Below, one piece after another: positions 30,144 to 64,000 of a DNA stretch of 64,000 nt. The notes beneath the pieces were generated by a model. It saw nothing but the letters and a program-made list of their open reading frames with translations, was not told the origin of the DNA and did not search any database. Numbering within the stretch: position 1 is the stretch's first letter; every line of letters begins with the position of its first letter. The stretch comes from Vicinamibacterales bacterium (GTDB lineage: Bacteria > Acidobacteriota > Vicinamibacteria > Vicinamibacterales > UBA2999), in NCBI GenBank assembly GCA_050250955.1, contig JBFWNR010000006.1, positions 54,716-118,715 on the forward strand. The letters are read 5' to 3'. The translations under genes were made by a program, and so were the position numbers.

Positions 30144-30199
30144 CCGACGCACCGCGCGCTGCCCTTACGCTACCGATGCGGCGCTTCTACGGGGCCGCC

Positions 30200-34489: not shown

Positions 34490-34497
34490 CTCCAGCC

Positions 34498-49323: not shown

Positions 49324-49403
49324 CGGGGTCGCGAAATGCTAGCAGATAGGTCACAACGGCGTCGCACCGGCGGGCGTATACTGCGCCTTTCCAGGAGGCG
49401 CCC

Positions 49404-50537
49404 ATGACGATCTGGCCCCGCGCGATGGCCGTGGCGGCGGTGGTGGCCGGGCTGGCGGCGACGCCGGCGGGCGCGCAGCCGCCGGTGCCGCCCGTGCCGG
49501 ACGGCTGCACGCTCGGCGTGCTGCCCTCGAACGCCGGCGCGCTGTTCTGCGTCCCCGAGGCCTGGAACGGGCAGCTCGTCGTCTATGCGCCGGGCTACAC
49601 CCCGCCGCAGCTGCCGCTCGGGTTCTACCAGCTCACCGCCGCCGACGGCACCTCGCTGCCGGCGCTGGTGCAGAGCCTCGGCTTCGCCTTTGCGACCACG
49701 ACCTACCGCAAGAACGGGCTGGCCATCGTGCAGGGCAGCGACGACATCCGCGAGCTGGTGGCGGCGTTTCCGGTGGCGACCGGGAGGACTCCCGCCAAGA
49801 CCCACCTCACGGGTGTCTCCTACGGCGCGCTCATCGCCACGCTGCTCGCCGAGCGCTCGCCGGCGCTGTTCTCGAGCACCCTCGCCGCGTGTGGCCCGAT
49901 CGGGTCGTTCCGCCAGCAGGTGAACTACCTGGGCGACTTCCGCGCCCTGTTCGACTACTACTTCCCGGGCGTGCTGCCGGGCTCGCCGGTCGCGATGCCG
50001 GCGGCGGCCGCCGCGGCGTGGACGTCCACCCACGTGCCGGCGATCGGCGCCGCGTTCATGGCCAACCCCGGCAGAGCGCTCGAGCTGATGCGGGTGTCGC
50101 GCGTGGCCTACGACCCGACGAACCTGATGACGGTCATCGACTCGGCCGTCGGCGTGCTGAGCTACAACGTCCTGGGCCTGAACGACGCCATCGCCACCCT
50201 GGGCGGCAATCCCTATGGCAACCGGGGCCGGCTCTACTTCGGGTCGTCCAACGACTTCCGCCTCAACCTGTTCATCAAGCGCTACGACGCCTCGCCGACG
50301 GCGCTGGCGGCGATGCGGCAGTACGAGACTTCCGGCGACCTGTCGATCCCGCTGGTCACGATCCACACCACCGCGGATCCGATCGCGCCCTTCGCCCATG
50401 AGCTGCTCTACCTGCCCAAGGTCGATCTGACCGGGCGCGGGCGGTTCCTGCCGTTCCCGGTGGCCCGCTATGGCCACTGCAGCTTCACCGGCACCGAGGT
50501 CGGCCTGGCGTTCCTGTTCACGGCCAATCTGCCGTAG
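49404..50537 (+). CDS. exported alpha/beta-hydrolase-like protein
   Basis: An AGGAGG RBS and a signal peptide are present. The nucleophile elbow is GVSYG. The stop TAG at 50535-50537 lies inside the CGTAGGG flank of a REP element. Confidence 0.7.
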   Translation: MTIWPRAMAVAAVVAGLAATPAGAQPPVPPVPDGCTLGVLPSNAGALFCVPEAWNGQLVVYAPGYTPPQLPLGFYQLTAADGTSLPALVQSLGFAFATTTYRKNGLAIVQGSDDIRELVAAFPVATGRTPAKTHLTGVSYGALIATLLAERSPALFSSTLAACGPIGSFRQQVNYLGDFRALFDYYFPGVLPGSPVAMPAAAAAAWTSTHVPAIGAAFMANPGRALELMRVSRVAYDPTNLMTVIDSAVGVLSYNVLGLNDAIATLGGNPYGNRGRLYFGSSNDFRLNLFIKRYDASPTALAAMRQYETSGDLSIPLVTIHTTADPIAPFAHELLYLPKVDLTGRGRFLPFPVARYGHCSFTGTEVGLAFLFTANLP

Positions 50538-50581
50538 GGTGGAGCTTCAGCTCCGCCGGCTGGCAGCTCTGAAGAGCTGCC
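50538..50581. repeat. pair of REP-like hairpins
   Basis: The pair is GGTGGAGCTTCAGCTCCGCC (50538-50557) and GGCAGCTCTGAAGAGCTGCC (50562-50581). They are flanked by CCGTAGGG ... CCCTACGG. Confidence 0.85.
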
Positions 50582-50583
50582 CT

Positions 50584-50631
50584 ACGGCTGGCGGCTAGCG
50601 GCCAGGGACGAGGGTTGGCGGCTGGCGGCCG
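50584..50631. repeat. degenerate GCGGCYR heptad repeats
   Basis: The units are ACGGCTG GCGGCTA GCGGCCA, a 13-nt spacer, then GCGGCTG GCGGCCG. This lies upstream of the SoxC-like gene. Confidence 0.7.
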
Positions 50632-50658
50632 GCCGGGAACGGGAGTATCCTCCCGCGC

Positions 50659-51876
50659 ATGGCGAAGACATCTTCTCGGCATGGGATCTCGCGCCGCCGC
50701 CTGCTGGCCGCCGGCTCGGCCGGAGTGGTCGGCGCCGCGGCGTCACTGGCTGCCCAGGACACCACCAAGGTCCAGGGCCCCGGCACGACCGACGTCGGAG
50801 CCCGCTCGCCGCACGCCAAGCTGCAGCGCATGTCGTTCGGCGGCCGCCGCACCGCGTCGCAGTCGCCGCTGCAGGGCCTGGACGGCATCATCACGCCGGC
50901 CGACCTGCACTTCGAGCGGCATCACGGCGGCGTGCCGGCCATCGATCCGGCCAGCTGGTCGCTGCTCGTGCACGGCATGGTCGAGCGGCCGCTGGTCTTC
51001 ACCCTCGACGACCTGAAGCGCTTCCCCGGCCGCTCGGTGATCCGTTTCCTGGAGTGTTCCGGCAACGGCAGCCGGGCCTACCGGCCGGATCCGAAGGCGG
51101 CCGAGACCACGCCGCAGATGCTCGACGGGCTGACCAGCACCAGCGAGTGGACCGGCGTGCCGCTGGCGACGGTGCTGCGCGAGGTCGGCGCGTCGGCCAA
51201 GGCGACCTGGTTCCTGGCCGAGTCACAGGATGCCGCCGTGCTCGCCCGCAGCATCCCGATCGAGAAAGCGATGGACGACGCGATGCTCGTCTACGCGCAG
51301 AACGGCGAGGCGCTGCGTCCGGAGCAGGGCTACCCGGTGCGGCTCTTCAACCCCGGGTGGGAGGGCTCGTCGAGCGTGAAGTGGCTGCGCCGCATCGAGC
51401 TGTCCGATCAGCCGTTCATGATGCGCGAGGAGACCTCGAAGTACACCGACCCGCTGCCCGACGGCACGGCCCGGCAGTTCAGCTTCGTGATGGACGCCAA
51501 GTCGATCATCACCCAGCCGGCCTTCCCCGAGAAGCTCACCGGCCCGGGGTGGCGCGAGATCCGCGGCATCGCCTGGAGCGGCCGCGGCCGGATTGCCCAC
51601 GTGGACATCAGCGTGGACAACGGCGCCACCTGGCAGCGCGCCACCCTCGACGACCCGGTGCTGCCCAAGTGCCACACCCGGTTCCGCTTCGCCTGGAACT
51701 GGACCGGCGCCGAGACGACGATCATGAGCCGCGCCACCGACGAAACCGGTTACTCGCAGCCGACGCTCAAGGCGCTGATGGCGGTGCGCGGTCCGGGCAC
51801 GCAGTACCACTTCAACAACATCCGGGCCTGGAAGGTCGCCGCCGACGGCACCGTCACGCTGGCGGTGGGCGCATGA
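50659..51876 (+). CDS. SoxC/SorA-like sulfite (sulfane) dehydrogenase molybdopterin subunit, Tat-exported
   Basis: A Tat motif (SRRRLLAAG) is present. The patterns are HFERHHGG.P...LECSGNG...EWTGV.L..VL...YAQNGEALRPEQGYPVRLF.PGWEG...VKWLRRIE. An Ig-like C-terminal domain follows. Confidence 0.9.
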   Translation: MAKTSSRHGISRRRLLAAGSAGVVGAAASLAAQDTTKVQGPGTTDVGARSPHAKLQRMSFGGRRTASQSPLQGLDGIITPADLHFERHHGGVPAIDPASWSLLVHGMVERPLVFTLDDLKRFPGRSVIRFLECSGNGSRAYRPDPKAAETTPQMLDGLTSTSEWTGVPLATVLREVGASAKATWFLAESQDAAVLARSIPIEKAMDDAMLVYAQNGEALRPEQGYPVRLFNPGWEGSSSVKWLRRIELSDQPFMMREETSKYTDPLPDGTARQFSFVMDAKSIITQPAFPEKLTGPGWREIRGIAWSGRGRIAHVDISVDNGATWQRATLDDPVLPKCHTRFRFAWNWTGAETTIMSRATDETGYSQPTLKALMAVRGPGTQYHFNNIRAWKVAADGTVTLAVGA

Positions 51877-52460
51877 GCCGCACGCCGGCGGTGTGGACGG
51901 CGGTGGCGGCCCTCGGCGTGGCTTGGTCGGCGGCGCTGGTCGCCCAGACCGCCAGGCCGGCAGCCGCCCCGGCGCGCTACGGCCTGGGCCGGGCCGCGTC
52001 GGCCGACGAGATCCGGACCCTCGACATCGACGTGCGCCCCGACGGCACCGGGCTGCCCGAGGGCCGCGGCACCGTCGCCGAAGGCGCGGCGATCTACGCC
52101 GCGAAGTGTGCGTCGTGCCACGGCAAGGCCGGCGAGGGCGCCTCGTTCGACCGCCTGGTGGCCACCGACGCCGGCGACAACTTCGCCTTCGGCCGCGATC
52201 CGCGCCTGGCCAGGGCGATCGGCAACTACTGGCCTTACGCCTCGACGCTCTACGACTACACGATGCGCTCGATGCCGTTCACCGCGCCGGGCACGTTGAC
52301 CGCCAACGAGGGCTACGCGCTGGTGGCCTATCTGCTCGCCCTCAACAAGGTCGTGTCGGACGATGCCGTGATGGACCGCACGACGCTGCCCAAGGTGGCG
52401 ATGCCGGCCCGCGACCGCTTCGTCCGCGACAACCGCACCGGCGGCAAGGTGGTCAAATAA
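51873..52460 (+). CDS. SoxD/SorB-like c-type cytochrome
   Basis: ATG 51873 overlaps the SoxC-like stop (ATGA). A signal peptide is present. The pattern is DIDVRPDGTGLPEGRG....G..IY..KCASCHG..GEG...YWPYASTLYDYTMRSMPF..PG.L...E.YAL.AYLL. Confidence 0.85.
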   Translation: MSRTPAVWTAVAALGVAWSAALVAQTARPAAAPARYGLGRAASADEIRTLDIDVRPDGTGLPEGRGTVAEGAAIYAAKCASCHGKAGEGASFDRLVATDAGDNFAFGRDPRLARAIGNYWPYASTLYDYTMRSMPFTAPGTLTANEGYALVAYLLALNKVVSDDAVMDRTTLPKVAMPARDRFVRDNRTGGKVVK

Positions 52461-52461
52461 C

Positions 52462-52524
52462 GCGGCTAGCGGCTAGCGGCTAGCGGCTAGCGGCTAGCGG
52501 CTGGCGGCTGGCGGCTGGCGGCGA
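52462..52524. repeat. heptanucleotide tandem repeat (GCGGCTA)x5 (GCGGCTG)x3 + GCGGCGA
   Basis: Read directly from the sequence. It starts 2 nt after the TAA at 52458-52460. The CTAG core puts TAG stops in all three frames on both strands. Confidence 0.9.
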
Positions 52525-52628
52525 CCCTCCAGGGACCGCCACTGTCGGTCTTTGGTGCTAGGATTGGGCGCTCGGTTCGCGCGTCCACGGTGGCGCCGGC
52601 AGCCCGGCGAACGCATCAGGAGCACGCC

Positions 52629-53963
52629 ATGCGAAACCTCGGTTTCGGGTGTCTCGGTGGATTGACCGTTCTCGCCGCGGTGCTGGCGGCCCCCCAGGCG
52701 GCGGCGGGCCAGGGGCCCGACGGGCCGACCTTCACGAAGGACATCGCGCCGATCTTCCAGGCCAAGTGCGAGGCCTGCCATCGCCCCGACTCGATCGGGC
52801 CGATGTCGCTGCGCACCTATGCCGAGGCGCGGCCGTGGGCGCGCTCGATCCGCGCCCGGGTCGAGGCGCGGCAGATGCCGCCGTGGCACATCGACAAGAC
52901 GGTCGGCATCCAGGCCTTCAAGAACGACCGCTCGCTGACCGACACGGAACTGGCCACGGTGCTGGCCTGGGTCGATCGCGGCGCGCCGCAGGGCGACCCG
53001 AAGGACATGCCGCCGGCGAAGACCTGGCCCACCGAGCAGACCTGGCAGGTGGCCAAGCAGTACGGGCAGAGCGAGCCGGATCTGGTCATCCGCTCGGTGC
53101 CGTGGACGCAGAAGGCCGGCGCCAACGACACCTGGTGGCGGCCGATCGTGGAGAGCGGCCTGACCGAGGCCCGCTGGGTGCGCGCCGTGGAGGTGCGGCC
53201 GAGCACCCTCAAGGGCCGCAAGATCACCCACCACGCCAACGCCGACCTGCTGCAGCTCGATCCCGACCTGCCGTCGGCCGAGATGACGCCCGGCCGGTTC
53301 AGTGAGTGGGCGGTGGGCAAGGACGCCGAGTTCGTCCGCCCCGACGCCGGGATGCTGATGCTGCCGGGCTCGAAGATCGCCTGGGACATCCACTACTCGA
53401 ACGGCGGCGAGGACATCACCAGCGCCGTCGAGCTCGGCATCTACTTCTACCCGAAGGGCGAGACCCCGCGGTACCGCCAGCATCTGGTGCGCATGGGCAA
53501 GACCGGCGTCGGCGCGGTGGACATTCCGCCCAACACCGTGCAGATGACCGAGGCCTACTTCCCGCTGCGCCAGGCGGCGCGCATCGAGAGCTTCCAGCCG
53601 CACATGCACCTGCGCGGCAAGGCGATGACGCTCGAGGCGATGCTGCCGACCGGCGCCAGCGTGGTGCTGAGCCACGTGGCCGAGTTCGACTTCAACTGGC
53701 ACACCTCCTACGTCTACGCCGACGACGCCGCGCCGCTGCTTCCCAAGGGCACCATCGTCAAGGTGAAGGCGTGGCACGACAACACCGCCGCCAGCCGCGG
53801 CAACCCCGATCCGAACGTGTGGGTCGGCTACGGCCAGCGCACGGTGGACGAGATGGCGCACGCGTGGGTGAACGTCACCTACTTCAGCGACGAGGAGTAC
53901 GCGGGTCAGGTGGCGGCCCGCCAGGAGCGCCTGCGCGCCGCGTCGGCCGACCGGCAGCGGTAG
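52629..53963 (+). CDS. exported haem c motif protein fused to a PHM/DBH-like copper monooxygenase-like domain
   Basis: ATG 52629 is followed by a signal peptide. The N-terminal pattern is IAPIFQAKCEACHRPDSIGPMSLRTY...MPPWH. KITHHAN and FQPHMHLRGKAM plus a later Met resemble the CuH/CuM ligand patterns. Confidence 0.7.
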   Translation: MRNLGFGCLGGLTVLAAVLAAPQAAAGQGPDGPTFTKDIAPIFQAKCEACHRPDSIGPMSLRTYAEARPWARSIRARVEARQMPPWHIDKTVGIQAFKNDRSLTDTELATVLAWVDRGAPQGDPKDMPPAKTWPTEQTWQVAKQYGQSEPDLVIRSVPWTQKAGANDTWWRPIVESGLTEARWVRAVEVRPSTLKGRKITHHANADLLQLDPDLPSAEMTPGRFSEWAVGKDAEFVRPDAGMLMLPGSKIAWDIHYSNGGEDITSAVELGIYFYPKGETPRYRQHLVRMGKTGVGAVDIPPNTVQMTEAYFPLRQAARIESFQPHMHLRGKAMTLEAMLPTGASVVLSHVAEFDFNWHTSYVYADDAAPLLPKGTIVKVKAWHDNTAASRGNPDPNVWVGYGQRTVDEMAHAWVNVTYFSDEEYAGQVAARQERLRAASADRQR

Positions 53964-53976
53964 TCGGGACCCCGTC

Positions 53977-54942
53977 GTGCAGACGCGCACTGGACCGGCG
54001 ACGGCGGCGGCGCTCGCCGTGGCGGCGGCGTGGCTGCTCACCGCGGCTCCGGCGGCGCAGAAGCCGCGCGAACCGCTGCCCGGCGAGCCGCTCGGCGCCG
54101 GCGGCGAGGCGATCTTCCCGGTGCTCGAGGGCTGGGGACCGCTCAAGGACGGCTCGACGGCGATCCTGCTCGGCTACTACAACCGCAACCGCGGCGCCGC
54201 CTTCGACATCCCGATCGGGCCCGACAACCGCATCGAACCCGGCGGGCCCGACTACGGCCAGCCGACGCACTTCGAGCCCAGCCAGCACCACGGCGTCTTC
54301 GCGATCAAGGTGCCGGCCGGCTTCGGCACCAGCCGCCTGACCTGGACGCTGAAGGCCAACGGCCAGGAGGCGAAGGTGAGCTTCTGGCTCAACCCGCCCT
54401 ACTGGGTCGACTTCTTCAAGCATGCGGCCACTGGGAACGAGCCGCCGGTGGTGCGCTTCGCGCCCGGGGCGGCGGCCCACACCGGCCCGCCGGTGGGGTT
54501 CGCCGCGACGCTCGCCGGCGCGGTCGGGCAGGCGCTCCCGCTCACCGTGTGGGTGAGCGACGTGCCCGGACCGCTCGAAGGGCCCGACAACGAGCTGGCG
54601 GCGCAGCGCCGCAAGACGGCGCCGGTGGTCGATCCGGTGGCCATCGTCGGCGACACCACGTTCGGCGGCACCGGCCGGCGCACCGTGCCCGACGACTCGT
54701 CGAACCTTCTCGTCCACTGGCACCACTACCGCGGCGCCGGGCCGGTCAGCTTCGCCCGCGCCCGGGTGCCGGTGGCGACCGGCGGCGATGCGACCAAGGT
54801 GGTCGAAGCGGCGACCACCGCCACCTTCGGCGCGCCGGGCGAGTACGTGCTGCGCGCCCAGGTCTCCGACGAGTCGGGCGAGAGCGGCGGCGGCGACCAG
54901 TGCTGCTGGACGACAGTGCACGTGAAGGTCACGGTGAAATGA
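53977..54942 (+). CDS. exported hypothetical protein (two beta-rich modules, C-terminal CC motif)
   Basis: GTG at 53977. A signal peptide and coding-type bias are present. I recognise no family. It ends ...GGGDQCCWTTVHVKVTVK. Confidence 0.65.
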   Translation: MQTRTGPATAAALAVAAAWLLTAAPAAQKPREPLPGEPLGAGGEAIFPVLEGWGPLKDGSTAILLGYYNRNRGAAFDIPIGPDNRIEPGGPDYGQPTHFEPSQHHGVFAIKVPAGFGTSRLTWTLKANGQEAKVSFWLNPPYWVDFFKHAATGNEPPVVRFAPGAAAHTGPPVGFAATLAGAVGQALPLTVWVSDVPGPLEGPDNELAAQRRKTAPVVDPVAIVGDTTFGGTGRRTVPDDSSNLLVHWHHYRGAGPVSFARARVPVATGGDATKVVEAATTATFGAPGEYVLRAQVSDESGESGGGDQCCWTTVHVKVTVK

Positions 54943-54943
54943 C

Positions 54944-56980
54944 GTGACGACGCCGCGGCTGCCGATCCCGCTGGCGCTGGCGCTGCTGCTGGTCCCGCCG
55001 GCACTCGGGGCCCGGCAGACGCCGGGCGTGCCCCCGGGCGAGTGGCACTACATCGGCGGCGACGTCCGCCACACCCGCTACTCGCCGCTCGACGAGATCA
55101 CCGCCGACAACTTCGGCAAGCTCGAGGTGGCGTGGGTGTGGCGCGGCGACAACTTCGGCCCGTCGGCCGACCCGATCTTCCGCGCCACCCCGCTCTACGT
55201 GGACGGGCTGCTCTACGTCGTCGCCGGCCAGCGCCGCACCGTGGCCGCGATCGATCCCGGCACCGGCGAGACAGTGTGGACCTACCGCGAGCCGCCGACG
55301 ACGCGCTGGGATCGCGGCATGCGCAACAACTACGGCAAGGGCGTGGCCTATGCCGAGGTGGCCGGCCGCAAGGTGATCTTCTACACCTCGCCGGGCTTCT
55401 TCCTGCACGCCCTCGACGCCAAGACCGGGCTGCACCTCGAGAACTGGGGCGCGCGGGTGCCGATCGCCGGCTTCCCGGCGAGCGGCGTCGTCGACATGCT
55501 GCCCGACCTGGTCAAGGACTGGCAGCCGTGGCTGCAGTCCGAATACAAGTACGACGCCGAGCACGGCATCCCCCGCGATCTCGGCAACCTGTCCACCTCG
55601 TCGCCGCCGATCGTCGTCAACGGCGTGGTCGTGGTCGGCAACGTCCACGAGCAGGGCTACTACCAGACCCGCATCGAGAACATCCCCGGCGACATCCTGG
55701 CCTACGACGCCCGGTCCGGGAAACCGCTGTGGAAGTTCCACGTCATTCCGCGGCCGGGCGAGTTCGGCCACGAGACGTGGGAGAACGACGCCTGGCGGAC
55801 CACCGGCGACGTGTCGTCGTGGGCGCCGATGTCGGCCGATCCCGAGCGCGGGCTGGTCTACATTCCGACCAACCCGCCGACGATCGACTTCTTCGGCGGC
55901 TTCCGTCCTGGCGCCAACCTGTTCGGCACCAGCCTGCTGGCCCTCGACGTCAAGACCGGCCAGCGCCGCTGGCACTTCCAGATGGTCCATCACGACATCT
56001 GGAACTTCGACAACCCGCAGGCGCCGGTGCTGCTCGACGTGCCGATCGACGGGCGGATGACGCCGATCGTCGTCGAGACCACCAAGCAGGGGTTCGCCTA
56101 CGTCTTCAACCGCGAGACCGGCCGGCCGATCTGGCCGATCGAAGAGCGGCCGGTGGCGGCGTCGGACCTGCCCGGCGAGATCCTGTCGCCGACGCAGCCG
56201 TTTCCGACCCGGCCGCCGCCGCTCGAGATCCAGGAGCTCAGCGACGACAACCTGATCGACTTCACGCCGGAGCTGAAGGCCGAGGCGCGCGAGATCGTCA
56301 CACGCTACAAGATCGGCCCGCTCTTCAACCCGCCGATCCAGGTGGGCCACCCGTCGGGGCTGCGGTCGTTCGTGAGCTGTCCGTCCGGCGCCAGCAACAT
56401 CAACGGCCCCACCGTGGCCGATCCCGAGGCCGGCGTGCTGTTCGTGCCGGTCGATCGGTCGTGCCGCGCCGAGAACCTGGTGCCCGGCGCACAGATGGAC
56501 AAGCCCGACAACCCCAAGACCACCGGGCGCACGCTGTCGCGCTGGGTGGTGGCCAACCGCGGCGATCTGCGCGGGCCGCAGGGGCTGCCGATCTGGAAGC
56601 CACCCTACGGCCGCGTGATCGCCATCGACATGCGCACCGGCGAGTTCAAGTGGGAAGTGCCCAACGGCGACGCGCCGGACTTCATCCGCAACCATCCGCT
56701 GCTCAAGGGCCGCGACATCCCCAACACCGGCCGGCCCGGCCACGCCGTGCTGCTGCCGACCAGGACGCTGCTCATCACCGCGCCGCCCGGCCAGGCGCTG
56801 CTCTACGCGCTCGACAAGGCCACCGGCCGCCGCGTCGGCACCGCCAAGCTGCCGGCGCCGGGGCAATACGGGATGATGGGCTACCAGCACCGTGGCCGCC
56901 AGCACGTGGTGGTGCAGATCGGCAGCGGCACGCATCCCGGGTCGCTGGTCGCGCTCCGGCTCCCAGGTGAACTCCCGTAG
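54944..56980 (+). CDS. PQQ-dependent dehydrogenase (quinoprotein beta-propeller), exported
   Basis: The patterns are W.YIGGD...TRYSPLD.I...NF..L.VAW, TPLYVDG.LYV, G...W.Y and HHDIWNFD. The stop TAG at 56978-56980 lies in the CGTAGGG flank of a REP hairpin. Confidence 0.9.
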   Translation: MTTPRLPIPLALALLLVPPALGARQTPGVPPGEWHYIGGDVRHTRYSPLDEITADNFGKLEVAWVWRGDNFGPSADPIFRATPLYVDGLLYVVAGQRRTVAAIDPGTGETVWTYREPPTTRWDRGMRNNYGKGVAYAEVAGRKVIFYTSPGFFLHALDAKTGLHLENWGARVPIAGFPASGVVDMLPDLVKDWQPWLQSEYKYDAEHGIPRDLGNLSTSSPPIVVNGVVVVGNVHEQGYYQTRIENIPGDILAYDARSGKPLWKFHVIPRPGEFGHETWENDAWRTTGDVSSWAPMSADPERGLVYIPTNPPTIDFFGGFRPGANLFGTSLLALDVKTGQRRWHFQMVHHDIWNFDNPQAPVLLDVPIDGRMTPIVVETTKQGFAYVFNRETGRPIWPIEERPVAASDLPGEILSPTQPFPTRPPPLEIQELSDDNLIDFTPELKAEAREIVTRYKIGPLFNPPIQVGHPSGLRSFVSCPSGASNINGPTVADPEAGVLFVPVDRSCRAENLVPGAQMDKPDNPKTTGRTLSRWVVANRGDLRGPQGLPIWKPPYGRVIAIDMRTGEFKWEVPNGDAPDFIRNHPLLKGRDIPNTGRPGHAVLLPTRTLLITAPPGQALLYALDKATGRRVGTAKLPAPGQYGMMGYQHRGRQHVVVQIGSGTHPGSLVALRLPGELP

Positions 56981-57000
56981 GGCAGAACTTCAGTTCTGCC
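56981..57000. repeat. REP-like hairpin GGCAGAACTTCAGTTCTGCC
   Basis: It has a perfect 8-bp stem and the loop TTCA. It directly abuts the stop codon of the PQQ dehydrogenase gene. Confidence 0.85.
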
Positions 57001-57191
57001 GCCAACGGACTTCGACGACCGCGCCGGCGAAGGGCTGACTCGTCTCCCGCGTCCGAACCCTCCCCGCCCCACGACGCGAAGTCCGCGTCGCGGGGACCCC
57101 GAGGCCGGCCGTCAAACGCCATCGGGGGCGAGCGTCGGCGGAACGCAGGGTCCCGGGCGGTGCTGCGCGACGCGACGAGTCTCGTGCGTAG

Positions 57192-57211
57192 GGCAGAGCC
57201 TCAGCTCTGCC
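57192..57211. repeat. REP-like hairpin GGCAGAGCCTCAGCTCTGCC
   Basis: It has a perfect 8-bp stem and the loop CTCA. It is preceded by CGTAGG. Confidence 0.85.
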
Positions 57212-57707
57212 AGCCCCTCGCGTCGCCCCGGTCCCTGAACACCCTACGTGGACTTCGGCGCCTGGCCACCCGTGATGGCAATGCCGCCGGCATTCGACCG
57301 GCGATGCATCGCCGGTCGCTGCGTTGCTCCTCCCTCACATGCTGCTCGGCATGCTCGGTCGTCGACGCCTTGCGCTCGGCGCGCCTCACCGGTCTCGGTG
57401 CGGCGCCGGCACTGCCATCACGGGCGGCATTGGCGTTTGACGACTGACGATTGCGCGGCCTGCTCCGGAACGGCCGCGGGATCCGAGCCGGCCCTCCGCC
57501 GGCGGAGTCCACGCCCGCAACCGCGTCCGCAGCGGAACGAACTGTAATCCTGACGGCCGCCGCAGGAACTCCCGTGAAGGACCGCGCCGCGGACTCGGTG
57601 TTAGCATCAGCGCTGCAGTGCTTTACGTGAGGGACTGCGGCGCACCTCTTCCGAATTAGGCTGACGACGCTTGCAGGATGTCGGCGCGGTTCGCAGGTCC
57701 AATAATA

Positions 57708-57714
57708 GTTAGGC
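57708..57714 (+). other. GTTAGGC core (GTTRRRY) site at the left edge of the first cassette
   Basis: It is an exact GTTRRRY match. It is preceded by the AT-rich AATAATA and by two same-orientation relatives, GTTAGCA (57600) and ATTAGGC (57655). Confidence 0.45.
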
Positions 57715-57745
57715 AGAGCGGCGAACGTCATCTCAAGGCTCACAA

Positions 57746-58228
57746 GTGCTCTGGCAGATTCCTGCACTCGCAGAGTCGTCGTGGCTCAGCCCACAAGTAT
57801 CGACCCGGGCGGTGCTGATCGTCGGCCTCGCTACGATGTTCTTCGGCCCAGCGTTGGTATGGTGCGAGCGGTGGTTGCGTGGCGGGTCAGGCACAGCCAG
57901 CGTTCCAGGCTTGATGTTCAGTCTCGTTGCCATGCTCGCCGCACTCGTGGTGTCCGCCGCGACCGAACCCGGTGTCAACGCCGTCGCCACGCCCATCGAG
58001 TTCGGGGTTGCGTTGTGCGGCCTCGGTCTGTCGTATTGGCACTCACTGCGGGTCGGTGCCGCCCTTCAGCAAGTCCGCTTCGCAGCTGGCAGCTCCCGGG
58101 GGTCGGCGAATTGGCTCCTTGGTCTTGCGGCGTTCTCGCCTCTCGGAGGCCTTCTTCCGGCGTTCGCAGTCTTGCTTGCTGTCGCAGCGCTAAGCCATCA
58201 ATCCGCCGGTCGGCAATCGCCTGCCTAA
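57746..58228 (+). CDS. cassette ORF: small membrane protein (about 4 TM), unknown family
   Basis: GTG at 57746. Hydrophobic segments are present. The stop TAA at 58226-58228 lies inside the R'' box GCCTAAC of attC1. Confidence 0.45.
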   Translation: MLWQIPALAESSWLSPQVSTRAVLIVGLATMFFGPALVWCERWLRGGSGTASVPGLMFSLVAMLAALVVSAATEPGVNAVATPIEFGVALCGLGLSYWHSLRVGAALQQVRFAAGSSRGSANWLLGLAAFSPLGGLLPAFAVLLAVAALSHQSAGRQSPA

Positions 58229-58297
58229 CCAGCGGTTGCAGCCGACGGCGCGCGGTGGCATTCTGAGCGCGCCGCGGCTGAACCGCGGTCGTTAGGG
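58223..58297 (+). repeat. attC-like site 1 (75 nt)
   Basis: GCCTAAC ... GTTAGGG. The arms 58232-58253 and 58267-58288 form a ~20-bp stem with single-base bulges at G58238 and A58245. It matches attC2 at 60/75 positions, and the differences cluster in the central loop. Confidence 0.65.
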
Positions 58298-58312
58298 CGG
58301 ACCGGCGAGCAG

Positions 58313-58525
58313 CTACAGGTCTTCGGGGCGCAGGCCAGTGCGCTTGCTGATCCTGGCGAGCATTCTCGGACCGAGTTCCTCGTCGTCGTGAAACGCAAAG
58401 ACGACGTCTGGCCAGTTGGGGCGGGCCAGCGTTCGGTGCGATCCGGATTGCCGCTTGACGACCCAGCCGATGCGGGCCAATGCCGCGATAACGCGGCGGG
58501 CCTTCGTGGCGGGCCAGTTGCTCAC
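58313..58525 (-). CDS. hicA: HicA-family mRNA interferase toxin
   Basis: The pattern K.RRVIAALARIGWVVKRQSGSHRTL......VVFAFH...ELGPRMLARISKRTGL is the HicA/YcfA pattern. GTG 58525 overlaps the hicB stop (GTGA). Confidence 0.85.
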   Translation of the reverse strand: MSNWPATKARRVIAALARIGWVVKRQSGSHRTLARPNWPDVVFAFHDDEELGPRMLARISKRTGLRPEDL

Positions 58526-58737
58526 GCCGCGTTGAAGGTGACGTTCAGCAGATCTGAGGGCGTTTCGCTGTGCTCAAGGCGCTCGGCGATCACTCGGAGC
58601 GCCAAGGCCTGGACCTTGGCGACGGCCTCACTGCGATCGGCACCATAGCAGATCACGCCCGGCAGCGCGGGCACCTCGGCGAGCCAGCGGCCATCGTCTT
58701 CCCGCTCGAGCTCGATCGTGAAGGTCATTGGGTCCAC
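58522..58737 (-). CDS. hicB: HicB-like antitoxin (short form, no DNA-binding domain)
   Basis: The pattern FTIELEREDDGRWLAEVPALPGVICYGADRSEAVAKV is the HicB N-domain pattern. The start is GTG 58737 or ATG 58728. Confidence 0.8.
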   Translation of the reverse strand: MDPMTFTIELEREDDGRWLAEVPALPGVICYGADRSEAVAKVQALALRVIAERLEHSETPSDLLNVTFNAA

Positions 58738-58756
58738 TCTACACCCCCAATCGGCT

Positions 58757-58831
58757 GCCCAACAAGCGGTTGCAGCCGACGGCGGCCAAGCGCATCATGA
58801 GGCCGCCGCGCCTGAACCGCGGTCGTTAGAA
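58757..58831 (+). repeat. attC-like site 2 (75 nt)
   Basis: GCCCAAC ... GTTAGAA. It has the same arm sequences and the same two bulges as attC1, with a different loop. Confidence 0.65.
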
Positions 58832-58879
58832 CGCCACGCAACGCCCTCCGGCGACGGAGGGCACCCAAAGGGGAAACCC

Positions 58880-59173
58880 ATGTATGTGATGCAGGCCACC
58901 TTCAAGGCGAAACCCGGCAAGGCGCAGGCTCTGGCAGACCGGATCTCTGCCGCCGCTGTCGCGGTCTCTTCCGATACGCGCGTGAAGGAGTGGCGCGTGC
59001 TCATCGACCATGTGGCTGACTTCTGGACTGTCGTGTTCGAAGCGTCGTTTGAGCACCTCGACGACTACTTCGCGGTGATCTCGCAACCTGAGGCGCGGGC
59101 GGCGATGGAGGGGTACCTCGACTTGGTCGAGAGCGGTGGGCGCCGGCTGTTCAGGCTTGCGGCGGAAGGCTAG
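58880..59173 (+). CDS. cassette ORF: 97-aa protein, possibly dimeric alpha/beta-barrel (ABM/Dabb-like)
   Basis: ATG 58880 has a GGAGG/GGGG-rich leader. The stop TAG at 59171-59173 lies inside the R''-like box GGCTAGC of attC3. Confidence 0.55.
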   Translation: MYVMQATFKAKPGKAQALADRISAAAVAVSSDTRVKEWRVLIDHVADFWTVVFEASFEHLDDYFAVISQPEARAAMEGYLDLVESGGRRLFRLAAEG

Positions 59174-59253
59174 CCTGTTCGAAGGCGTCGAGCGAAGTGG
59201 ACGGGGGCGGCAGCAGACTTCCGGGACGTTGGACGGGCTGAACGACGTTAGCC
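59168..59253 (+). repeat. attC-like site 3 (86 nt, more degenerate)
   Basis: GGCTAGC ... GTTAGCC, with boxes complementary at 6/7 positions. The arms (CTGTTCGAAGGCGTC / GACGGGCTGAACGAC) form an imperfect stem with unpaired bases. Confidence 0.5.
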
Positions 59254-59583
59254 AATCAGTTCGAAGAGGCCCTCGAGCACTGCCGCCAGTTCCTCGTCGG
59301 CCACCCTGCCCAACCGACGGCCGATGCGTTCAGTCGAGAGGGTGCGTATCTGGCCGGTCTTGACCCACGAGCGTTTGGGCAGCTTGGGTGTCCGCAACTC
59401 AAGCGTCAACGGGAATCCCGCGCGCGGCTCCTGGCTGGTCAGCGCGACGGCGATGACGGTTCCCGACCGCTCATTGAAGACATCGTGGCTGAGCACGAGC
59501 ACGGGCCGCTCGCCGGCCTGTTCGTGTCCTCGCGTCGGGTTCAGCTCGGCCCAGCGAATCTCGCCCCTCAGTATTCGGGCCAT
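59248..59583 (-). CDS. mazF: MazF/PemK-family endoribonuclease toxin
   Basis: The pattern is RGEIRWAELNPTRGHEQAGERPVLVLSHDVFNERSGTVIAVALTS......FPL.......LPK.SWVKTGQIRTLS.ERI. The stop overlaps the R' box of attC3. Confidence 0.9.
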   Translation of the reverse strand: MARILRGEIRWAELNPTRGHEQAGERPVLVLSHDVFNERSGTVIAVALTSQEPRAGFPLTLELRTPKLPKRSWVKTGQIRTLSTERIGRRLGRVADEELAAVLEGLFELIG

Positions 59584-59807
59584 GGGCTGTCCGCTCCCCA
59601 CGCCTCGTCGGCGAAGCGTCGCTCTTCGGCGGGGTCGAGCTTGGCGCATTCTTCGGCCAGGCGGGTGCGCGCGAGCCGCGCCAACTTCTCGGCCAGCGCG
59701 GTCTCAATCGCCTGGCTCCGGTTGCGAAACCGCGCGCGAGCCACGAGATCGTCAACCCGATCGAGCAGGGCCGAATCCAACGTCAAGGCGACCTTGGTCT
59801 TGGGCAT
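59568..59807 (-). CDS. ribbon-helix-helix antitoxin (MazE/CopG-type)
   Basis: ATG at 59807. The pattern MPKTKVALTLDSALLDRVDDLV....FRNRSQAIETAL is an RHH. It overlaps the mazF start by 16 nt. A TATAAA-like box lies upstream on the minus strand. Confidence 0.8.
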   Translation of the reverse strand: MPKTKVALTLDSALLDRVDDLVARARFRNRSQAIETALAEKLARLARTRLAEECAKLDPAEERRFADEAWGADSPWPEY

Positions 59808-59998
59808 GGCAGTATGACGATTTATACCACCACGTGAGCCACCCGGTCTATCGACCGCCGCTGTCCAGACCCGGAAGGCCGGGCGTCGGAAGCGCTCGCG
59901 GTGCTGGCGGGTCTGCCGGTGATCCCGGTGCGCAAAAGGCCTACCGGTGCCGCAACTGTAGTGATCGCAGCGAGTATCGGCAGGAGGCGCAGAATCCC

Positions 59999-60460
59999 GT
60001 GAACAAGGTGACACCGTTCCTGATGTTCAACGACCAGCTCGAGGCGGCGATCGCGTTCTACACCGCGACGTTCCCGAACTCCGAGGTGCGCCAGGTGGCC
60101 CGCACCGGCACCGACGGTCCGATCAGCTCCGCCGAGTTCGTCGTCGGGGGGCAGCCCTTCATGGGCTACAACGGCGGGTCGTACTTCAGCTTCTCCGAAG
60201 GAGTGTCGCTCTACGTGGACTGCGCGGATCAGGCCGAAGTGGACCGGTACTGGGACGCGCTCGTGAAGGCCGGCGCGACGCCCACGCAGTGCGGGTGGAT
60301 CAAGGACCCCTTCGGGCTCACCTGGCAGATCGTCCCGCGGCGGTTCACCGAGCTGATCCGCGACCGGGACCCGAAGAAGGTCAAGGCGGTGATGGGCGCC
60401 ATGATGACGATGGTGAAGCTCGACGTCGCGGAGCTCGAGCGGGCCTACAACGAGGCGTAG
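59999..60460 (+). CDS. VOC/glyoxalase-superfamily protein (PhnB / 3-demethylubiquinone-9 3-methyltransferase-domain type)
   Basis: An AGGAGG RBS lies 11 nt upstream of GTG 59999. The patterns are VTPFLMFN.Q.EAAI.FY...F.NSE and GW.KD.FG..WQIVP. Confidence 0.8.
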   Translation: MNKVTPFLMFNDQLEAAIAFYTATFPNSEVRQVARTGTDGPISSAEFVVGGQPFMGYNGGSYFSFSEGVSLYVDCADQAEVDRYWDALVKAGATPTQCGWIKDPFGLTWQIVPRRFTELIRDRDPKKVKAVMGAMMTMVKLDVAELERAYNEA

Positions 60461-60488
60461 TCGTGCCCGTCCAGGCGGACAGTCGTCG

Positions 60489-61415
60489 TCACCGCCGTCG
60501 ACCGGTCAGGATCGCTGCCACCGCCGCCAGGATCAGCGCCGCGGCCAGCGCCGTGCGCTCGGTGAGCGGCTCACCGCCGACGGCCGAGCCGAGCAGGACC
60601 GCGACCAGCGGGTTGACGAAGGCGTAGCTGCCGACCCGCGACGGGGTGGACACGCGCAGCAGCCACACGTAGGCGGTGAAGGCCACGATCGAGGCGGCCA
60701 CCACCATGTAGGTGAAGCCGCCCAGCGAGCGCCACGACACGGCGCGAACGTCGAAGGTCGCCACCTCGCCCAGCGCCAGCGCGACGACCATGAGCGAGGC
60801 GCCGCCGGCGATGAGCTGCATGCCGGTGGACAGCACGACCGACCTCGGCAGGTTCGAGCGCCGGGCGGTGATTGAGCCGAGCGCCCACGAGAACCCGCTC
60901 ACCTGGATGACGAGCAGCCCGATCGGGTCCACGGCGCCGCCCCAGCTGCCCGGGCCGACGAGCACGGTCAGCCCGACGAGGCCCAGGCCGAGGCCGAGCC
61001 AGACGGCGTTGCTGGGTCGCGACGCGCCGGCCCACAGCCAGTCGAGCAGCGTCATCCACAGCGGCAGCGTCGCCATGCCGAGGGCGGCCATGCCCGACGG
61101 CACCCGGCCCTGCGCCCATGCCAGCAGGCCATGGCAGCCGAGGAACAGGAACACGCCGACGCGGGCGGCAGCCCGCCAGTGGGTGAACGTGGGCGACGGC
61201 GCGGAGCGCGCCCGGGCCCAGGCATAGAGGCAGAGGCCGGCCAGCGTCGAGCGGATGCCCATCAGCAGGAACGGCGGAATGGTCTCGATGGCGTAGCGGA
61301 TGGCGAGGAAGTTCGAGCCCCACAGCAGGTAGATGAGCAGGAATGCCGCCGCCACCTGGGCGCGCGGCGGGGCCGTGGCCGGGGGCAGCGTCGCGACGGT
61401 CACGCCTTGTAGCAT
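60489..61415 (-). CDS. EamA/DMT-family transporter
   Basis: It has ten TM segments and two EamA-like halves (LLWGSNFLAIRYA...). Confidence 0.85.
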   Translation of the reverse strand: MLQGVTVATLPPATAPPRAQVAAAFLLIYLLWGSNFLAIRYAIETIPPFLLMGIRSTLAGLCLYAWARARSAPSPTFTHWRAAARVGVFLFLGCHGLLAWAQGRVPSGMAALGMATLPLWMTLLDWLWAGASRPSNAVWLGLGLGLVGLTVLVGPGSWGGAVDPIGLLVIQVSGFSWALGSITARRSNLPRSVVLSTGMQLIAGGASLMVVALALGEVATFDVRAVSWRSLGGFTYMVVAASIVAFTAYVWLLRVSTPSRVGSYAFVNPLVAVLLGSAVGGEPLTERTALAAALILAAVAAILTGRRR

Positions 61416-61448
61416 CCCGGCAGAGGCCGGGGCGACACAAGCGAATGA

Positions 61449-61466
61449 TCGCGACGTCGGTCGCGA
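61449..61466 (-). terminator. candidate hairpin after bshA
   Basis: TCGCGAC-GTCG-GTCGCGA lies 10 nt beyond the bshA stop on the minus strand. Confidence 0.3.
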
Positions 61467-61476
61467 CGACGAGCTG

Positions 61477-62604
61477 TCAGCCCCGAGCCGCGAGATAGAC
61501 GTCTTCGTAGAGCGGCACGATCCGCTCGGTGCAGTAGCGGGCGCGGACCACGTCGGCGGCGGCCCGGCCCATCGCGCGGCGTCGGGCCGGATCGGCGACG
61601 AGCGCCAGACCCCGGTCGGCCATCGCCGCCACGTCGCCCGGCGGGCAGATGAACCCGGTGGCGCCGTCGTCGATGATCTCGGGCAGGCCGCCGACCCGGA
61701 AGGCCACGACCGGCATCTCGCAGGCCATCGCCTCGAGCGCCGCGAGTCCGAAGCTCTCCTGCGCCGAGGGCAGCAGGAAGACGTCGCCCACCGACAGCCA
61801 CGGCACCAGGTCCTGCTGCTCGCCGGCGAACTCGACGTCGGGGCCGAGTCCGGCCTCGACCACCCGGCGCTCGACCTCCGGCCGCACCGGTCCGTCGCCG
61901 ATGAGCACCAGACGGGCGGGCACCTGCCGCCGGATCAGACCGAACGCCTCGACGGCCAGCTCCACCTGCTTGACCGGGCGGAAATTCGAGACGTGGACGA
62001 ACACCGTGCCGGCGCCCCGGGCCACCCGGGTCCGCAGCGCCGCGGCGTCCTGCCGGCGGTAGTGATCGCAGTCGAGAAAGTTCGGGATGACGGCGATCGG
62101 CGTCGTGATGCCGAGCGCGGCGACGGTGTCGGCGCGCAGGCTGGCCGAGACCGCCGTCACCGCGTGCGACTGCTCGATCGAGAAGGCCACCACCCGGGCG
62201 TACGACGGGTCGCTGCCGACCAGCGTGATGTCGGTGCCGTGCAGGGTCGTGACGGTACGCGGCGACAGCCCCGGCGTCGCGGCCAGCATCTGGTCGGCCA
62301 GGTAGGCGGCGGTGGCGTGCGGGACCGCGTAGTGCGCGTGGACGATGTCGAGGTGCTTCTGCTCGGCCACCCGCGTGATGGTGGTGGCGAGGGCGAGCAG
62401 GTATTGCGGTTCGCGGAAGAGCGGGTAGGACGGCACCACCACGGGTTCGAACGACAGGCCGGGCCCGCCGTCGCGGAAGCGGAACGGCGGCTCGCTGCTG
62501 ATCAGGTGGACGGTGTGGCCGCGCCCGGCCAGCGCGTGGGCCAGTTCGGTGGCGACCACGCCGCTGCCGCCGACCGAGGCGTAGCACACCATCCCGATCC
62601 TCAT
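61477..62604 (-). CDS. bshA: N-acetyl-alpha-D-glucosaminyl L-malate synthase (bacillithiol biosynthesis GT4 glycosyltransferase)
   Basis: The pattern MRIGMVCYASVGGSGVVATELAHALAGRGH.VH.I...PFR...HAHYAVPHA.AAYLA.QM...TTLHGTDIT.VG.DPS tracks Bacillus BshA closely, from memory. ATG 62604 overlaps the bshB stop. Confidence 0.85.
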   Translation of the reverse strand: MRIGMVCYASVGGSGVVATELAHALAGRGHTVHLISSEPPFRFRDGGPGLSFEPVVVPSYPLFREPQYLLALATTITRVAEQKHLDIVHAHYAVPHATAAYLADQMLAATPGLSPRTVTTLHGTDITLVGSDPSYARVVAFSIEQSHAVTAVSASLRADTVAALGITTPIAVIPNFLDCDHYRRQDAAALRTRVARGAGTVFVHVSNFRPVKQVELAVEAFGLIRRQVPARLVLIGDGPVRPEVERRVVEAGLGPDVEFAGEQQDLVPWLSVGDVFLLPSAQESFGLAALEAMACEMPVVAFRVGGLPEIIDDGATGFICPPGDVAAMADRGLALVADPARRRAMGRAAADVVRARYCTERIVPLYEDVYLAARG

Positions 62605-63317
62605 GGGGCGTCCTTGAGCAGGCTCGCGCGCTGGATCGGCTCGCGGACCACCAGGCCTTCGGCGAAGGCGACGCCGGCCAGCGCCCCGAACTGCGCGTCG
62701 CGGCTCTCGATGAGTTGTCCGAAGGTCGCCGCGGTCAGCCGCGTGGCGACCGCGCCGTCCTCGGCCGGCGCGAACTGGCTCCGGTAGCAGGCCAGGGCGT
62801 CCCGCTTCTTCTGGTAGTGGTCCGAGACGTCGACGACGAACGACGGCGGCGCGCCGTCGTTGATGAAGTAGTAGCAGACCCAGTCGGGGCGCCACGGCGC
62901 GTCGGCGGTCTCGTAGCGGCGCAACCCGCTGGTGAACGCCGCCCGCCGCAGCACCTGGCTGCTGGCGACGTGGTCGGGGTGGCGGTCGTCCCAGTAGGGG
63001 ATGGCGATGGTGCGCGGCCTGGCCCGGCGGATGAGTTCGACGGCCGAACGAATCAGCGCCGGCGTGGCCTCGATGCCGCCGTCCGGCCAGCCGAGGTTGA
63101 CCCGCCAGGCCGCCCCGAGCACGCTGGCCGCCGCGCCGGCCTCGGCCCGCCGCGTCTCCGGCGTGCCGTTGGACGACAGCTCGCCGGCGGTCAGGTCGCA
63201 CAGCCCGACCGGCTGGCCGGCGGCGACGTGCCGGGCGATGGTGCCGCCGAGCCCGATCTCAAGGTCGTCGGGGTGCGGCCCGAACACCAGGACGTCGACC
63301 GGCGACGGCGCGCTCAC
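62601..63317 (-). CDS. bshB: N-acetyl-alpha-D-glucosaminyl L-malate deacetylase (PIG-L/LmbE family)
   Basis: The pattern is VLVFGPHPDDLEIGLGGTIA.....G..VG.CDLT.GELSSNGT.E.R..EA..A..VLG...R..L..PDG...PYW.DRHPDH. GTG 63317 overlaps the upstream stop. Confidence 0.85.
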   Translation of the reverse strand: MSAPSPVDVLVFGPHPDDLEIGLGGTIARHVAAGQPVGLCDLTAGELSSNGTPETRRAEAGAAASVLGAAWRVNLGWPDGGIEATPALIRSAVELIRRARPRTIAIPYWDDRHPDHVASSQVLRRAAFTSGLRRYETADAPWRPDWVCYYFINDGAPPSFVVDVSDHYQKKRDALACYRSQFAPAEDGAVATRLTAATFGQLIESRDAQFGALAGVAFAEGLVVREPIQRASLLKDAP

Positions 63318-63934
63318 GGCCGCGGCTTGGCCAGGTAGGCCTTCGACGCCGCCTCGTCCTTGAGCGGCGTCACCTTGTCGGGGTCGATGCGCACCATCAT
63401 GTAGTCGATGTGGTCGTCGATCCTGGTGAACCAGTGGCCGGTGCCGGCGGGAATCACCACCACGTCGCCGGCCTTGAGGTTGTAGGACACGCCGTTGCGG
63501 ATCTCGGCGCCGTTGTTGCCCGGGCCGTTGAACTCCCGCACGGTCTGCAGCGTGGCCGGCCGGCGCTGGCGGTTGGTGATGTCGGGGCCCAGCATCAGGG
63601 TCGCCGTGCCGTCGATGATGTAGTAGACCTCGCTCACCAGGTCGTGTTCGGCCACCGAGTTGGGCAGCGGCGCGTCGAGCCTGCCGCGATGCACCATGCC
63701 GATGCCGATGTGCGCCTTGCCGATCTCGATGTCGCGCACCTGCTGGTCGGTGAGCTTCTCGGCCACCGCCTTCTGCGTGTAGGCGCGCAGCTCCTCGGCC
63801 GGGATGTAGTAGCCGGGACACATCGCGCAGGTCGGCTGCGGATCGGTGGGGTTGATCTTCGTCTGGGCGACGACGGCGGCGACGGCGACGATGGCGACGG
63901 CGACCGCGGCGGTTCCGGCAACGATGGCTCTCAC
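63314..63934 (-). CDS. exported cupin-domain protein
   Basis: A signal or anchor segment is present. The cupin motifs are H....EVYYIIDG.ATL and GDVVVIPAGTGHWF. Confidence 0.75.
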   Translation of the reverse strand: MRAIVAGTAAVAVAIVAVAAVVAQTKINPTDPQPTCAMCPGYYIPAEELRAYTQKAVAEKLTDQQVRDIEIGKAHIGIGMVHRGRLDAPLPNSVAEHDLVSEVYYIIDGTATLMLGPDITNRQRRPATLQTVREFNGPGNNGAEIRNGVSYNLKAGDVVVIPAGTGHWFTRIDDHIDYMMVRIDPDKVTPLKDEAASKAYLAKPRP

Positions 63935-64000
63935 GCGACACCTCCAGTGGGCGCATCTTCCCCGGCGGCCGCCCGCAACGCAAGCACTGGACGTATACTC

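Follow-up and report, generated by a model that had tools for sequence, protein, structure and literature searches.

Near the right end of a 64,000-nucleotide (nt) stretch of DNA of a soil Vicinamibacterales bacterium (Acidobacteriota; GenBank assembly GCA_050250955.1, contig JBFWNR010000006.1; hereafter the window, numbered from its first letter), a 3.5-kb island is very probably the integrase-less remnant of a chromosomal integron that kept an attI-like end and its gene cassettes. Such a remnant is by definition a CALIN (an attC-site cluster without an integron integrase), that is, a locus with two or more attC sites and no integrase gene (intI) nearby, and loss of intI is among the origins proposed for such clusters (PMC4889954, PMC9024848). 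The island carries two attC sites on the same (plus) strand, 534 bp apart and hence within 4 kb, and the window contains no integron integrase (IntI) signal; the adjacent intI that marks a complete integron is missing. A first-pass annotation made from the sequence alone had described an integrase-less cassette array with reversed hicBA and mazEF pairs, and this description was upheld by two high-scoring attC sites, the lack of intI and the linkage of the same attC family to IntI genes elsewhere. It had also proposed the distal part of a chromosomal integron; an attI-like region has been kept without its intI, which makes the island the integrase-proximal end instead.

The coordinates and sequences given earlier for three candidate attC sites agreed with our reading of the window, and sites 1 and 2 constitute an 82-nt direct repeat (83% identical) with no further copy in the 64 kb. 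Of the 75 core positions 60 match, as previously counted, and the 15 mismatches are concentrated in the loop and also in the distal stem, where the two sites differ by compensatory changes (CGC/GCG versus GCC/GGC). As single strands both sites form imperfect hairpins of approximately 20 bp. Folding of the bottom strands gave −30.5 kcal/mol for site 1 (z −5.9) and −24.9 kcal/mol for site 2 (z −3.9), with none of 200 shuffled sequences as stable, and it bore out the two single unpaired bases reported earlier, which lie 6 bp apart and on the R''/L'' arm only (in top-strand letters, G58238 and A58245 for site 1 and G58772 and A58779 for site 2). We conclude that the sequences of sites 1 and 2 identify them as genuine integron attC sites.

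A scan of positions 55000–64000 against Rfam 15 at E ≤ 10 returned noise only, with no attC-family match at the sites; we therefore built family-specific covariance models from other genomes. One genome per GTDB species was searched with an inner-arm pattern taken from sites 1 and 2, GCGGTTNCAGCCGACN{15,45}CTGAACCGC, for which we estimate approximately 0.5 chance matches. The search yielded 77 genome loci (numbered with the prefix L below), mostly in metagenome-assembled genomes (MAGs) of Acidobacteriota and Vicinamibacterales, with further bins labelled Anaerolineae/Chloroflexi, delta-proteobacteria, Planctomycetota, Gemmatimonadales, Burkholderiales and others. Nearly all loci have RYYYAAC 2 nt upstream and GTTRRRY 2–5 nt downstream, neither of which was demanded by the pattern, and the matched segment, from L'' to L' with the loop, ranges from 39 to 69 nt; the family can be summarized as the attC type GCGGTTGCAGCCGAC...GGCTGAACCGC. 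Model R1 was built from 78 independent sites of other genomes, with the window's own sites left out, and the broader model R2 from 120 sites of 24 loci. In the 78-site alignment, the stem columns left free by the pattern covary: 164 cells carry changes in both partners (71 ± 6 in shuffles), and pairing is seen in 90% of cells, compared with approximately 32% when the 3' partner was slid by 1–3 columns. With R1 the scores were 87.5 bits for site 1 (E 2e-23) and 72.3 bits for site 2 (E 8e-19), falling to 33.3 and 22 bits on the reverse strand, a drop that shows their strand asymmetry; R2 gave 78.3 and 63.7 bits. Beyond these two sites R1 found no match above 17 bits anywhere in the 64 kb with filters off. 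A blastn search of PLSDB plasmids with site 1 returned no attC-like match, only chance matches at E 0.2.

In the other genomes the family sites form long same-strand arrays spaced 0.4–1.2 kb apart, such as 11 sites in 8 kb in L006; over the 77 loci R1 returned 365 matches, some of which are weaker echoes of these palindromic sites on the reverse strand. By tblastn with two integrases, from L065 and L069, full or locus-truncated IntI homologs were found to adjoin the arrays in at least 10 of the 77 fetched loci (L065, L069, L020, L047, L071, L049, L039, L076, L053 and L052), and IntI fragments were found in L046, L005, L026 and L033. Both query proteins match TIGR02249, 'integron integrase', at 420 and 437 bits (cutoff 265) and contain the IntI-specific insertion. 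The intI gene is divergent from the array in L065 and points at it in L069, L020 and L047. In L030, an Acidobacteriota MAG, arrays of opposite orientation abut at approximately 5509–5668, minus-strand sites running to 5509–5585 and plus-strand sites starting from 5591–5668, which suggests an inversion or head-to-head arrays. Near-identical inner arms were seen across L004–L080 in MAGs from at least six phyla, with implausible labels such as Bifidobacteriaceae and Enterobacteriaceae among them; either a cassette pool is common to these phyla or contigs with cassette arrays are often mis-binned. A single, very conserved attC type is common to arrays binned as Acidobacteriota, Chloroflexota, delta-proteobacteria, Planctomycetota and Gemmatimonadota.

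Four cassettes can be delimited in the island (Table 1). On the evidence of homology it is established that the hicBA, mazEF and 97-aa units behaved as IntI-mobilized cassettes, since cassettes with the same G↓TT boundaries (arrow, junction) recur in different arrays. Window positions 58223–58827 are 75% identical to L079 4264–3652, with the homology bounded by two attC sites, and homologous hicBA cassettes also occur in L052, L030 and L038. Positions 59250–59818 are 76% identical to L043 1781–1210, where the cassette lies between attC sites at 1792–1871 and 1093–1186. Homologs of the 97-aa open reading frame (ORF), 61–93% identical, are found in cassette arrays L095–L101, and this homology starts exactly at the G↓TTAGAAC junction of attC site 2 and ends at the stop codon. 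HicA matches PF07927 (52 bits), MazF/PemK matches PF02452 (106 bits) and the antitoxin encoded beside mazF matches the ribbon-helix-helix (RHH) family PF01402 above threshold; the genes of each toxin–antitoxin (TA) pair overlap, by 4 nt in the hic pair and by 16 nt in the maz pair. The minus-strand placement of both pairs, as first annotated, was confirmed, but the identity of hicB was left below threshold, with weak matches only (PF15919, PF21748). The hydrophobic 160-aa ORF of cassette 1 matched no Pfam or NCBIfam family. The hicBA cassette of L079 and the mazEF cassette of L043 are inverted, as in the window; TA cassettes are often inverted relative to their array. The same TA cassettes circulate among Acidobacteriota arrays, where the 97-aa cassette recurs too. 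Two Logan contigs, L002 and L003, that start at 58266 in the loop of attC site 1 were considered as cassette polymorphism and rejected, because any other attC of the family in the sample with the conserved 3' arm would break a de Bruijn contig there.

Beyond cassette 2 the attC sites are eroded. Site 3 (59168–59253), previously taken for a third attC, was reported by neither R1 nor R2 even at E ≤ 10 with filters off, and in folding it did not surpass shuffled sequences (z +0.7 and +1.5), so that the expected bottom-strand folding was borne out for sites 1 and 2 only. GGCTAGC, taken for its R'' box, encodes the Glu-Gly-stop that is conserved at the end of the 97-aa ORF family; of the two plus-strand stops said to lie within R'' boxes, the TAA in GCCTAAC stands and the one in GGCTAGC is an ORF end with no true R''. 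The sequence that follows, CCTGTTCG, corresponds to the 3' untranslated region (UTR) of the L095 cassette, in which a 75-nt UTR and then a true 124-nt attC (R2, 43 bits) come after the stop of the 97-aa ORF. In the window only 75 nt in all separate this stop from mazF; most of the cassette 3 attC is therefore missing. The L'–R' half listed in Table 1 is what is left of it: the window contains three matches to the pattern CTGAACN{2,8}GTTAG, in sites 1 and 2 and at 59238–59251, against 0.01 expected. The junction between cassettes 3 and 4 lies either at GTTGGAC (59228–59234, from the L043 alignment) or at GTTAGCC (59247), alternatives that are indistinguishable. Where the attC of cassette 4 would lie there is only an R''-like GTCTATC (59846–59852) followed by unrelated sequence; here GGTCTATC of the window aligns with the R'' GGTCTAAC of L043. 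The mazEF unit, once thought to be bounded by attC sites, is not delimited by two of them, because site 3 is no complete attC, and its own attC has decayed. The array thus retains two attC sites that are intact, besides a half-site and a site that has decayed. Further candidate attC sites at 57505–57610 and 59820–59960 folded like shuffles, gave no model matches and were rejected. Where the window has its TAA, the mazF homolog of L043 (1781–1871) has no stop, and in a manual reading of the alignment its frame stays open into the neighbouring attC; the window's mazF owes its stop to the TTA of GTTAGCC.

At the left end, 765 bp separate the stop codon of a pyrroloquinoline quinone (PQQ)-dehydrogenase gene from the 160-aa ORF, and two segments of this interval are homologous to the DNA downstream of intI in L020 and L047. 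The first, a conserved motif beginning GCGGAACGAACTGTAATCCTGAC, lies approximately 30–40 nt past the intI stop in related integrons and is preceded in the window by non-integrase DNA. It follows intI in L020, L047, L088 and L090, the latter two recovered with intI directly upstream in a metagenome scan for the motif, and it follows a truncated intI in L089, where approximately 30 nt of intI are fused to it. Five other matches of that scan (L085, L086, L091, L092 and L094) were rejected as unrelated coding sequence. The second segment, an attI-like region, shares window positions 57648–57712 with L047 1015–1080 (82% identity, E 6e-11) and L020 2277–2213 (79%); its core GTTAGGC (57708–57714) is the start of cassette 1, and its block CCAATAnTAGTTAGnC is kept downstream of intI in L020, L047, L069, L039, L053, L052, L089 and L090. 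The common module comprises the motif, approximately 175 nt with three repeats, and this block. L087 has the window's left arm (91% identity over 81 nt), the motif and the attI-like region, but a different first cassette. No compensatory pairs or covarying secondary structure were found in the motif or the attI-like region, which would fit a double-stranded protein-binding site. The approximately 180 nt at 57532–57714 can be read as the retained attI-like end of an integron, with a putative attI function.

Within the motif, 21 nt at 57534–57554, GGAACGA(A/T)CTGT(A/G)ATCCTGAC, are near-invariant approximately 30 nt past the intI stop and were observed in the window and at L020, L047, L088, L089, L090, L087, L084 and L093. 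This 21-nt sequence marks the point at which intI is absent (window) or truncated (L089). Its role might be that of an accessory site for IntI, of a regulatory site or of a hotspot for recombination.

The earlier statement that no tyrosine recombinase is encoded in the 64 kb held up: tblastn with the two IntI queries found nothing at E ≤ 1e-3, and an IntI-profile hmmsearch of the six-frame translation gave a best E of 0.45. The window extends 57 kb to the left and approximately 4.1 kb to the right of the array. An intI pseudogene within the island was sought by tblastn at E ≤ 50 and with the profile hidden Markov model, and both gave only noise.

The island lies between the convergent PQQ-dehydrogenase (stop 56980) and EamA transporter (stop 60489) genes. 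In three metagenomic relatives of approximately 85% nucleotide identity (L081, L082 and L083) the alignment to the window ends at 56970 and resumes at 60496; they have 24 bp in place of window positions 56971–60495, and the EamA gene lies at most 8 bp past the PQQ-dehydrogenase stop, which places the extent of the island at approximately 56981–60488. The array had been assigned to 57600–59830; it does lie there, within an island that the alignment to these relatives shows to be wider. Its GC content is 0.668 against 0.72 in the flanks, in line with the lower GC noted before. Invariant synteny in all relatives, which the first-pass annotation had named as an observation that would speak against it, is not found: the island is present in a 99.98%-identical genome (GCA_050178665.1, contig JBFXFV010000104.1, aligned over window positions 48313–59069 and also encoding the hicA protein) and missing from L081–L083.

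Table 1. Features of the integrase-less cassette island, in window coordinates
Feature	Position	Strand	Description
Non-coding stretch	56981–57531	.	550 bp, GC 0.72; sits where intI would be
Conserved motif GCGGAACGAACTGTAATCCTGAC...	57532–57565	+	97% over 34 nt to L020 2396–2363, E 2.6e-9
attI-like region	57597–57714	+	Three direct (G/A)TTAG(G/C)(C/A) repeats at 57600, 57656 and 57708
Cassette 1	57709–58291	+	160-aa hydrophobic ORF 57746–58228; TAA stop inside R'' of attC site 1
attC site 1	58223–58297	+	R'' GCCTAAC; L'' GCGGTT-G-CAGCCG-A-CGGCG...; 13-nt loop; L' ...CGGCTGAACCGC; R' GTTAGGG
Cassette 2	58292–58825	-	hicB 58522–58728, hicA 58313–58525; inverted relative to array
attC site 2	58757–58831	+	R'' GCCCAAC; L boxes and bulges as in site 1; R' GTTAGAA
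Cassette 3	58826–59247	+	97-aa ORF 58880–59173, weakly Dabb/ABM-like; own attC largely deleted
Residual L'–R' attC half	59236–59253	+	GGCTGAAC-GAC-GTTAGCC; sole attC-like part of site 3
Cassette 4	59248–59852	-	mazF 59248–59583, RHH mazE-like antitoxin 59568–59807; inverted; decayed attC
VOC/PhnB-like gene	59999–60460	+	PF06983, 130 bits; inside island; no attC after gene

From these comparisons we infer an order of events and, with it, the function of the attI-like region, the present recombination competence of the array and the activity of its TA pairs. The ancestral form would have been a chromosomal integron of the soil/freshwater type, with intI pointing at the array (the 'inverted' arrangement), and cassettes would have been captured by IntI recombining the attI core (G↓TTAGGC, 57708) with folded single-stranded attC hairpins. 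Later loss of intI, with a breakpoint just upstream of 57532, would have left the attI-like region and four cassettes, and the truncation of intI at the same motif in L089, an independent event, supports this step. Without an integrase the distal attC sites would then have decayed: cassettes 1 and 2, with intact attC sites, should in principle be excisable by IntI acting in trans, and cassettes 3 and 4, having lost most of theirs, would be fixed. The inverted TA cassettes presumably have their own promoters and may act as addiction modules countering loss of the array. If so, the locus illustrates a concrete route to a CALIN in a hard-to-culture soil phylum, in which intI is removed, the attI-like region is kept, distal attC sites decay stepwise and TA cassettes are retained.

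Several observations weigh against this reading. In sites 1 and 2 the spacer separating the R from the L boxes is partly paired: three extra pairs (GCG/CGC) lengthen the L stem and leave a short asymmetric internal loop, CA versus GGTC, of just 2 and 4 unpaired nt. The bottom-strand L'' bulge is C, where attC sites studied so far 'usually' have G (PMC5027507). No intI pseudogene is recognizable, and it is the motif and the attI-like region, and nothing else, from which a deletion at this very locus would be deduced. In place of intI stand the 550 bp at 56981–57531. This stretch contains long imperfect inverted repeats (57017–57055 with 57471–57509), a further inverted repeat that is 88% complementary (57265–57289 with 57404–57428) and a perfect palindrome around 57297–57318, and part of it recurs elsewhere: 57424–57504 is 91% identical to L087 1–80, and 57430–57555 is 72% identical to a degenerate copy of the motif region in L084, beside a rarA-like gene and with no cassettes. 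Because 57424–57555 recurs in these two contexts, the integron platform may have moved or been rearranged rather than decayed in place. The island may have been gained in the window's lineage or lost in its relatives.

The attI region and cassettes could have been split from a working intI by rearrangement, or the genome could hold a second, complete integron, so that the array is serviced in trans and not dead; we consider this possible, if rather unlikely. The attI-like core and two attC sites are intact, rearrangement is one origin of CALINs and half of CALINs lie in IntI-encoding replicons (Cury et al., PMC4889954), and L087 joins the window's left arm, motif and attI region to another first cassette; moreover, the window is 64 kb of a 313-kb contig. 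However, two of the four cassettes are without attC, suggesting a long time without recombination, and the window has no intI. The protein collection holds more than 7,900 IntI homologs at E ≤ 1e-60, but among the 10 NCBI clusters checked no IntI protein was linked to this assembly and none had an accession of the sister assembly (MGD99...). The island might also be an integrase-less satellite platform whose working attI and two working attC sites exchange cassettes through an IntI elsewhere in the genome or the community. The other first cassette of L087 and the recurrence in L089 of intI loss exactly at the conserved motif are hints in this direction, but we regard the idea as doubtful. If it were true, the approximately 180-nt motif and triple-TTAGGC region would be a so far uncharacterized attI of inverted-type Acidobacteriota integrons.

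It is improbable that the cassettes were inserted singly by a trans-acting IntI at a secondary ('attG') GTT site, with no platform ever present at the locus. IntI insertion outside att sites is documented (bioRxiv 10.1101/2022.09.11.507474; origin ii in PMC4889954) and the array, a short one, sits between core genes, but cassette insertion would not bring in approximately 180 nt that share homology with the motif and attI region in L020 and L047; 550 bp of DNA outside any cassette and a VOC gene that has no attC also belong to the island. Still more improbable is an array of three functional attC sites and four mobile cassettes. GGCTAGC and GTTAGCC are near-complementary, the half-site at 59238–59251 is non-random and site 3 sits at a true cassette junction, yet both covariance models are blind to this site, its folding energy is that of shuffles, its 5' 'boxes' are an ORF end and 3' UTR that are kept in L095 with the true attC 75 nt downstream, and no attC follows mazE. 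That the 75-nt repeat is a palindrome akin to repetitive extragenic palindromic (REP) elements or terminators and unrelated to integrons is scarcely credible: it is palindromic and intergenic, and further REP-like hairpins occur in the window, but the scatter named in the first-pass annotation as a refutation is not seen, there being two copies in 64 kb and, elsewhere, regular same-strand cassette arrays 0.4–1.2 kb apart beside IntI genes, with AAC/GTT R-box cores and strand-asymmetric bulges.

Among the remaining features of the island and its surroundings, the VOC/PhnB-like gene is missing from relatives L081–L083 and has no homolog among the fetched arrays. Short palindromes resembling REP elements or terminators, with the layout GGCAG(nnn)-loop-(nnn)CTGCC, lie at 56981–57003, 57188–57212, 30073–30152, 34458–34497 and 50550–50589; GGCAGAACTTCAGTTCTGCC directly follows the PQQ-dehydrogenase stop and GGCAGCTCTGAAGAGCTGCC occurs at three other places, both unlike the attC repeat. 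A second variable segment next to the island, 61352–63316, carries a gene for a GT4 glycosyltransferase and, overlapping it on the minus strand, an ORF that we read as an LmbE-type deacetylase; L081–L083 have NUP (PF06516) and PNP_UDP_1 genes at its place, and in both arrangements the conserved EamA and cupin genes lie on either side. At 2919–3044 a 9-bp tandem repeat (GCCGCCAAG-type, at least nine overlapping copies) lies in a coding region, where it would encode an Ala/Lys-rich repeat.

In comparison with known systems, the closest likeness is to the CALIN (Cury et al. 2016, PMC4889954; IntegronFinder 2.0, PMC9024848), as a small element with cassettes unrelated to resistance. CALINs generally have no intI pseudogene nearby (95%) and their attI sites are mostly unidentifiable, whereas here an attI-like region is recognizable by homology. 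The sedentary chromosomal integron, with more than 19 attC sites or a species-wide distribution, is not matched by two intact attC sites and an island missing from relatives of approximately 85% identity. The lineage is not, as had been supposed, one with poorly documented integrons: an Acidobacteria-specific attC model has already been built (Ghaly et al. 2021, PMC8352920; PMC9176274), NCBI annotates an 'integron integrase [Vicinamibacterales bacterium]', and we found dozens of arrays. With the chromosomal integrons of Acidobacteria and of soil and freshwater bacteria (PMC8352920) the island shares the attC type seen in long arrays of Vicinamibacterales and Acidobacteriota MAGs; the 'inverted' intI arrangement is known from a soil/freshwater sub-clade (PMC8352920), and intI is likewise co-directional with the array in L020, L047 and L069. 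It differs from Acidobacteria integrons in lacking intI and in having two intact attC sites against more than ten in many relatives.

The superintegron of Vibrio cholerae, in which TA cassettes with their own promoters stabilize chromosomal arrays (Richard et al. 2024, PMC13108822), likewise carries type II TA pairs as cassettes. The window differs in phylum, in the tiny size of its array and in its families (HicAB, and MazF with an RHH antitoxin); without an integrase, 'cassette-loss killing' would be moot, and only classical addiction against deletion would apply. Among studied attC sites, known for their R boxes, extrahelical bases near L'', central spacer and variable terminal structure (Nivina et al. 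2016, PMC5027507), attCaadA7 shares with sites 1 and 2 the RYYYAAC/GTTRRRY cores, the imperfect hairpin, two extrahelical bases 6 bp apart on the L'' arm (G16 and T23 in attCaadA7) and the variable loop (PMC5027507). The bottom-strand bulges of the window's sites are C and T, where G and T are usual (PMC5027507); most members of the family have C at the L'' bulge and a minority G, and the spacer is partly paired by 3 extra bp in contrast to canonical attC sites. The locus is a well-supported case of a known kind of element, the CALIN, and no new kind; IntegronFinder would be expected to call it as such, and the current understanding of integrons is unchanged. It is mildly unusual only in its retained attI-like region and in the motif common to the points at which intI breaks off.

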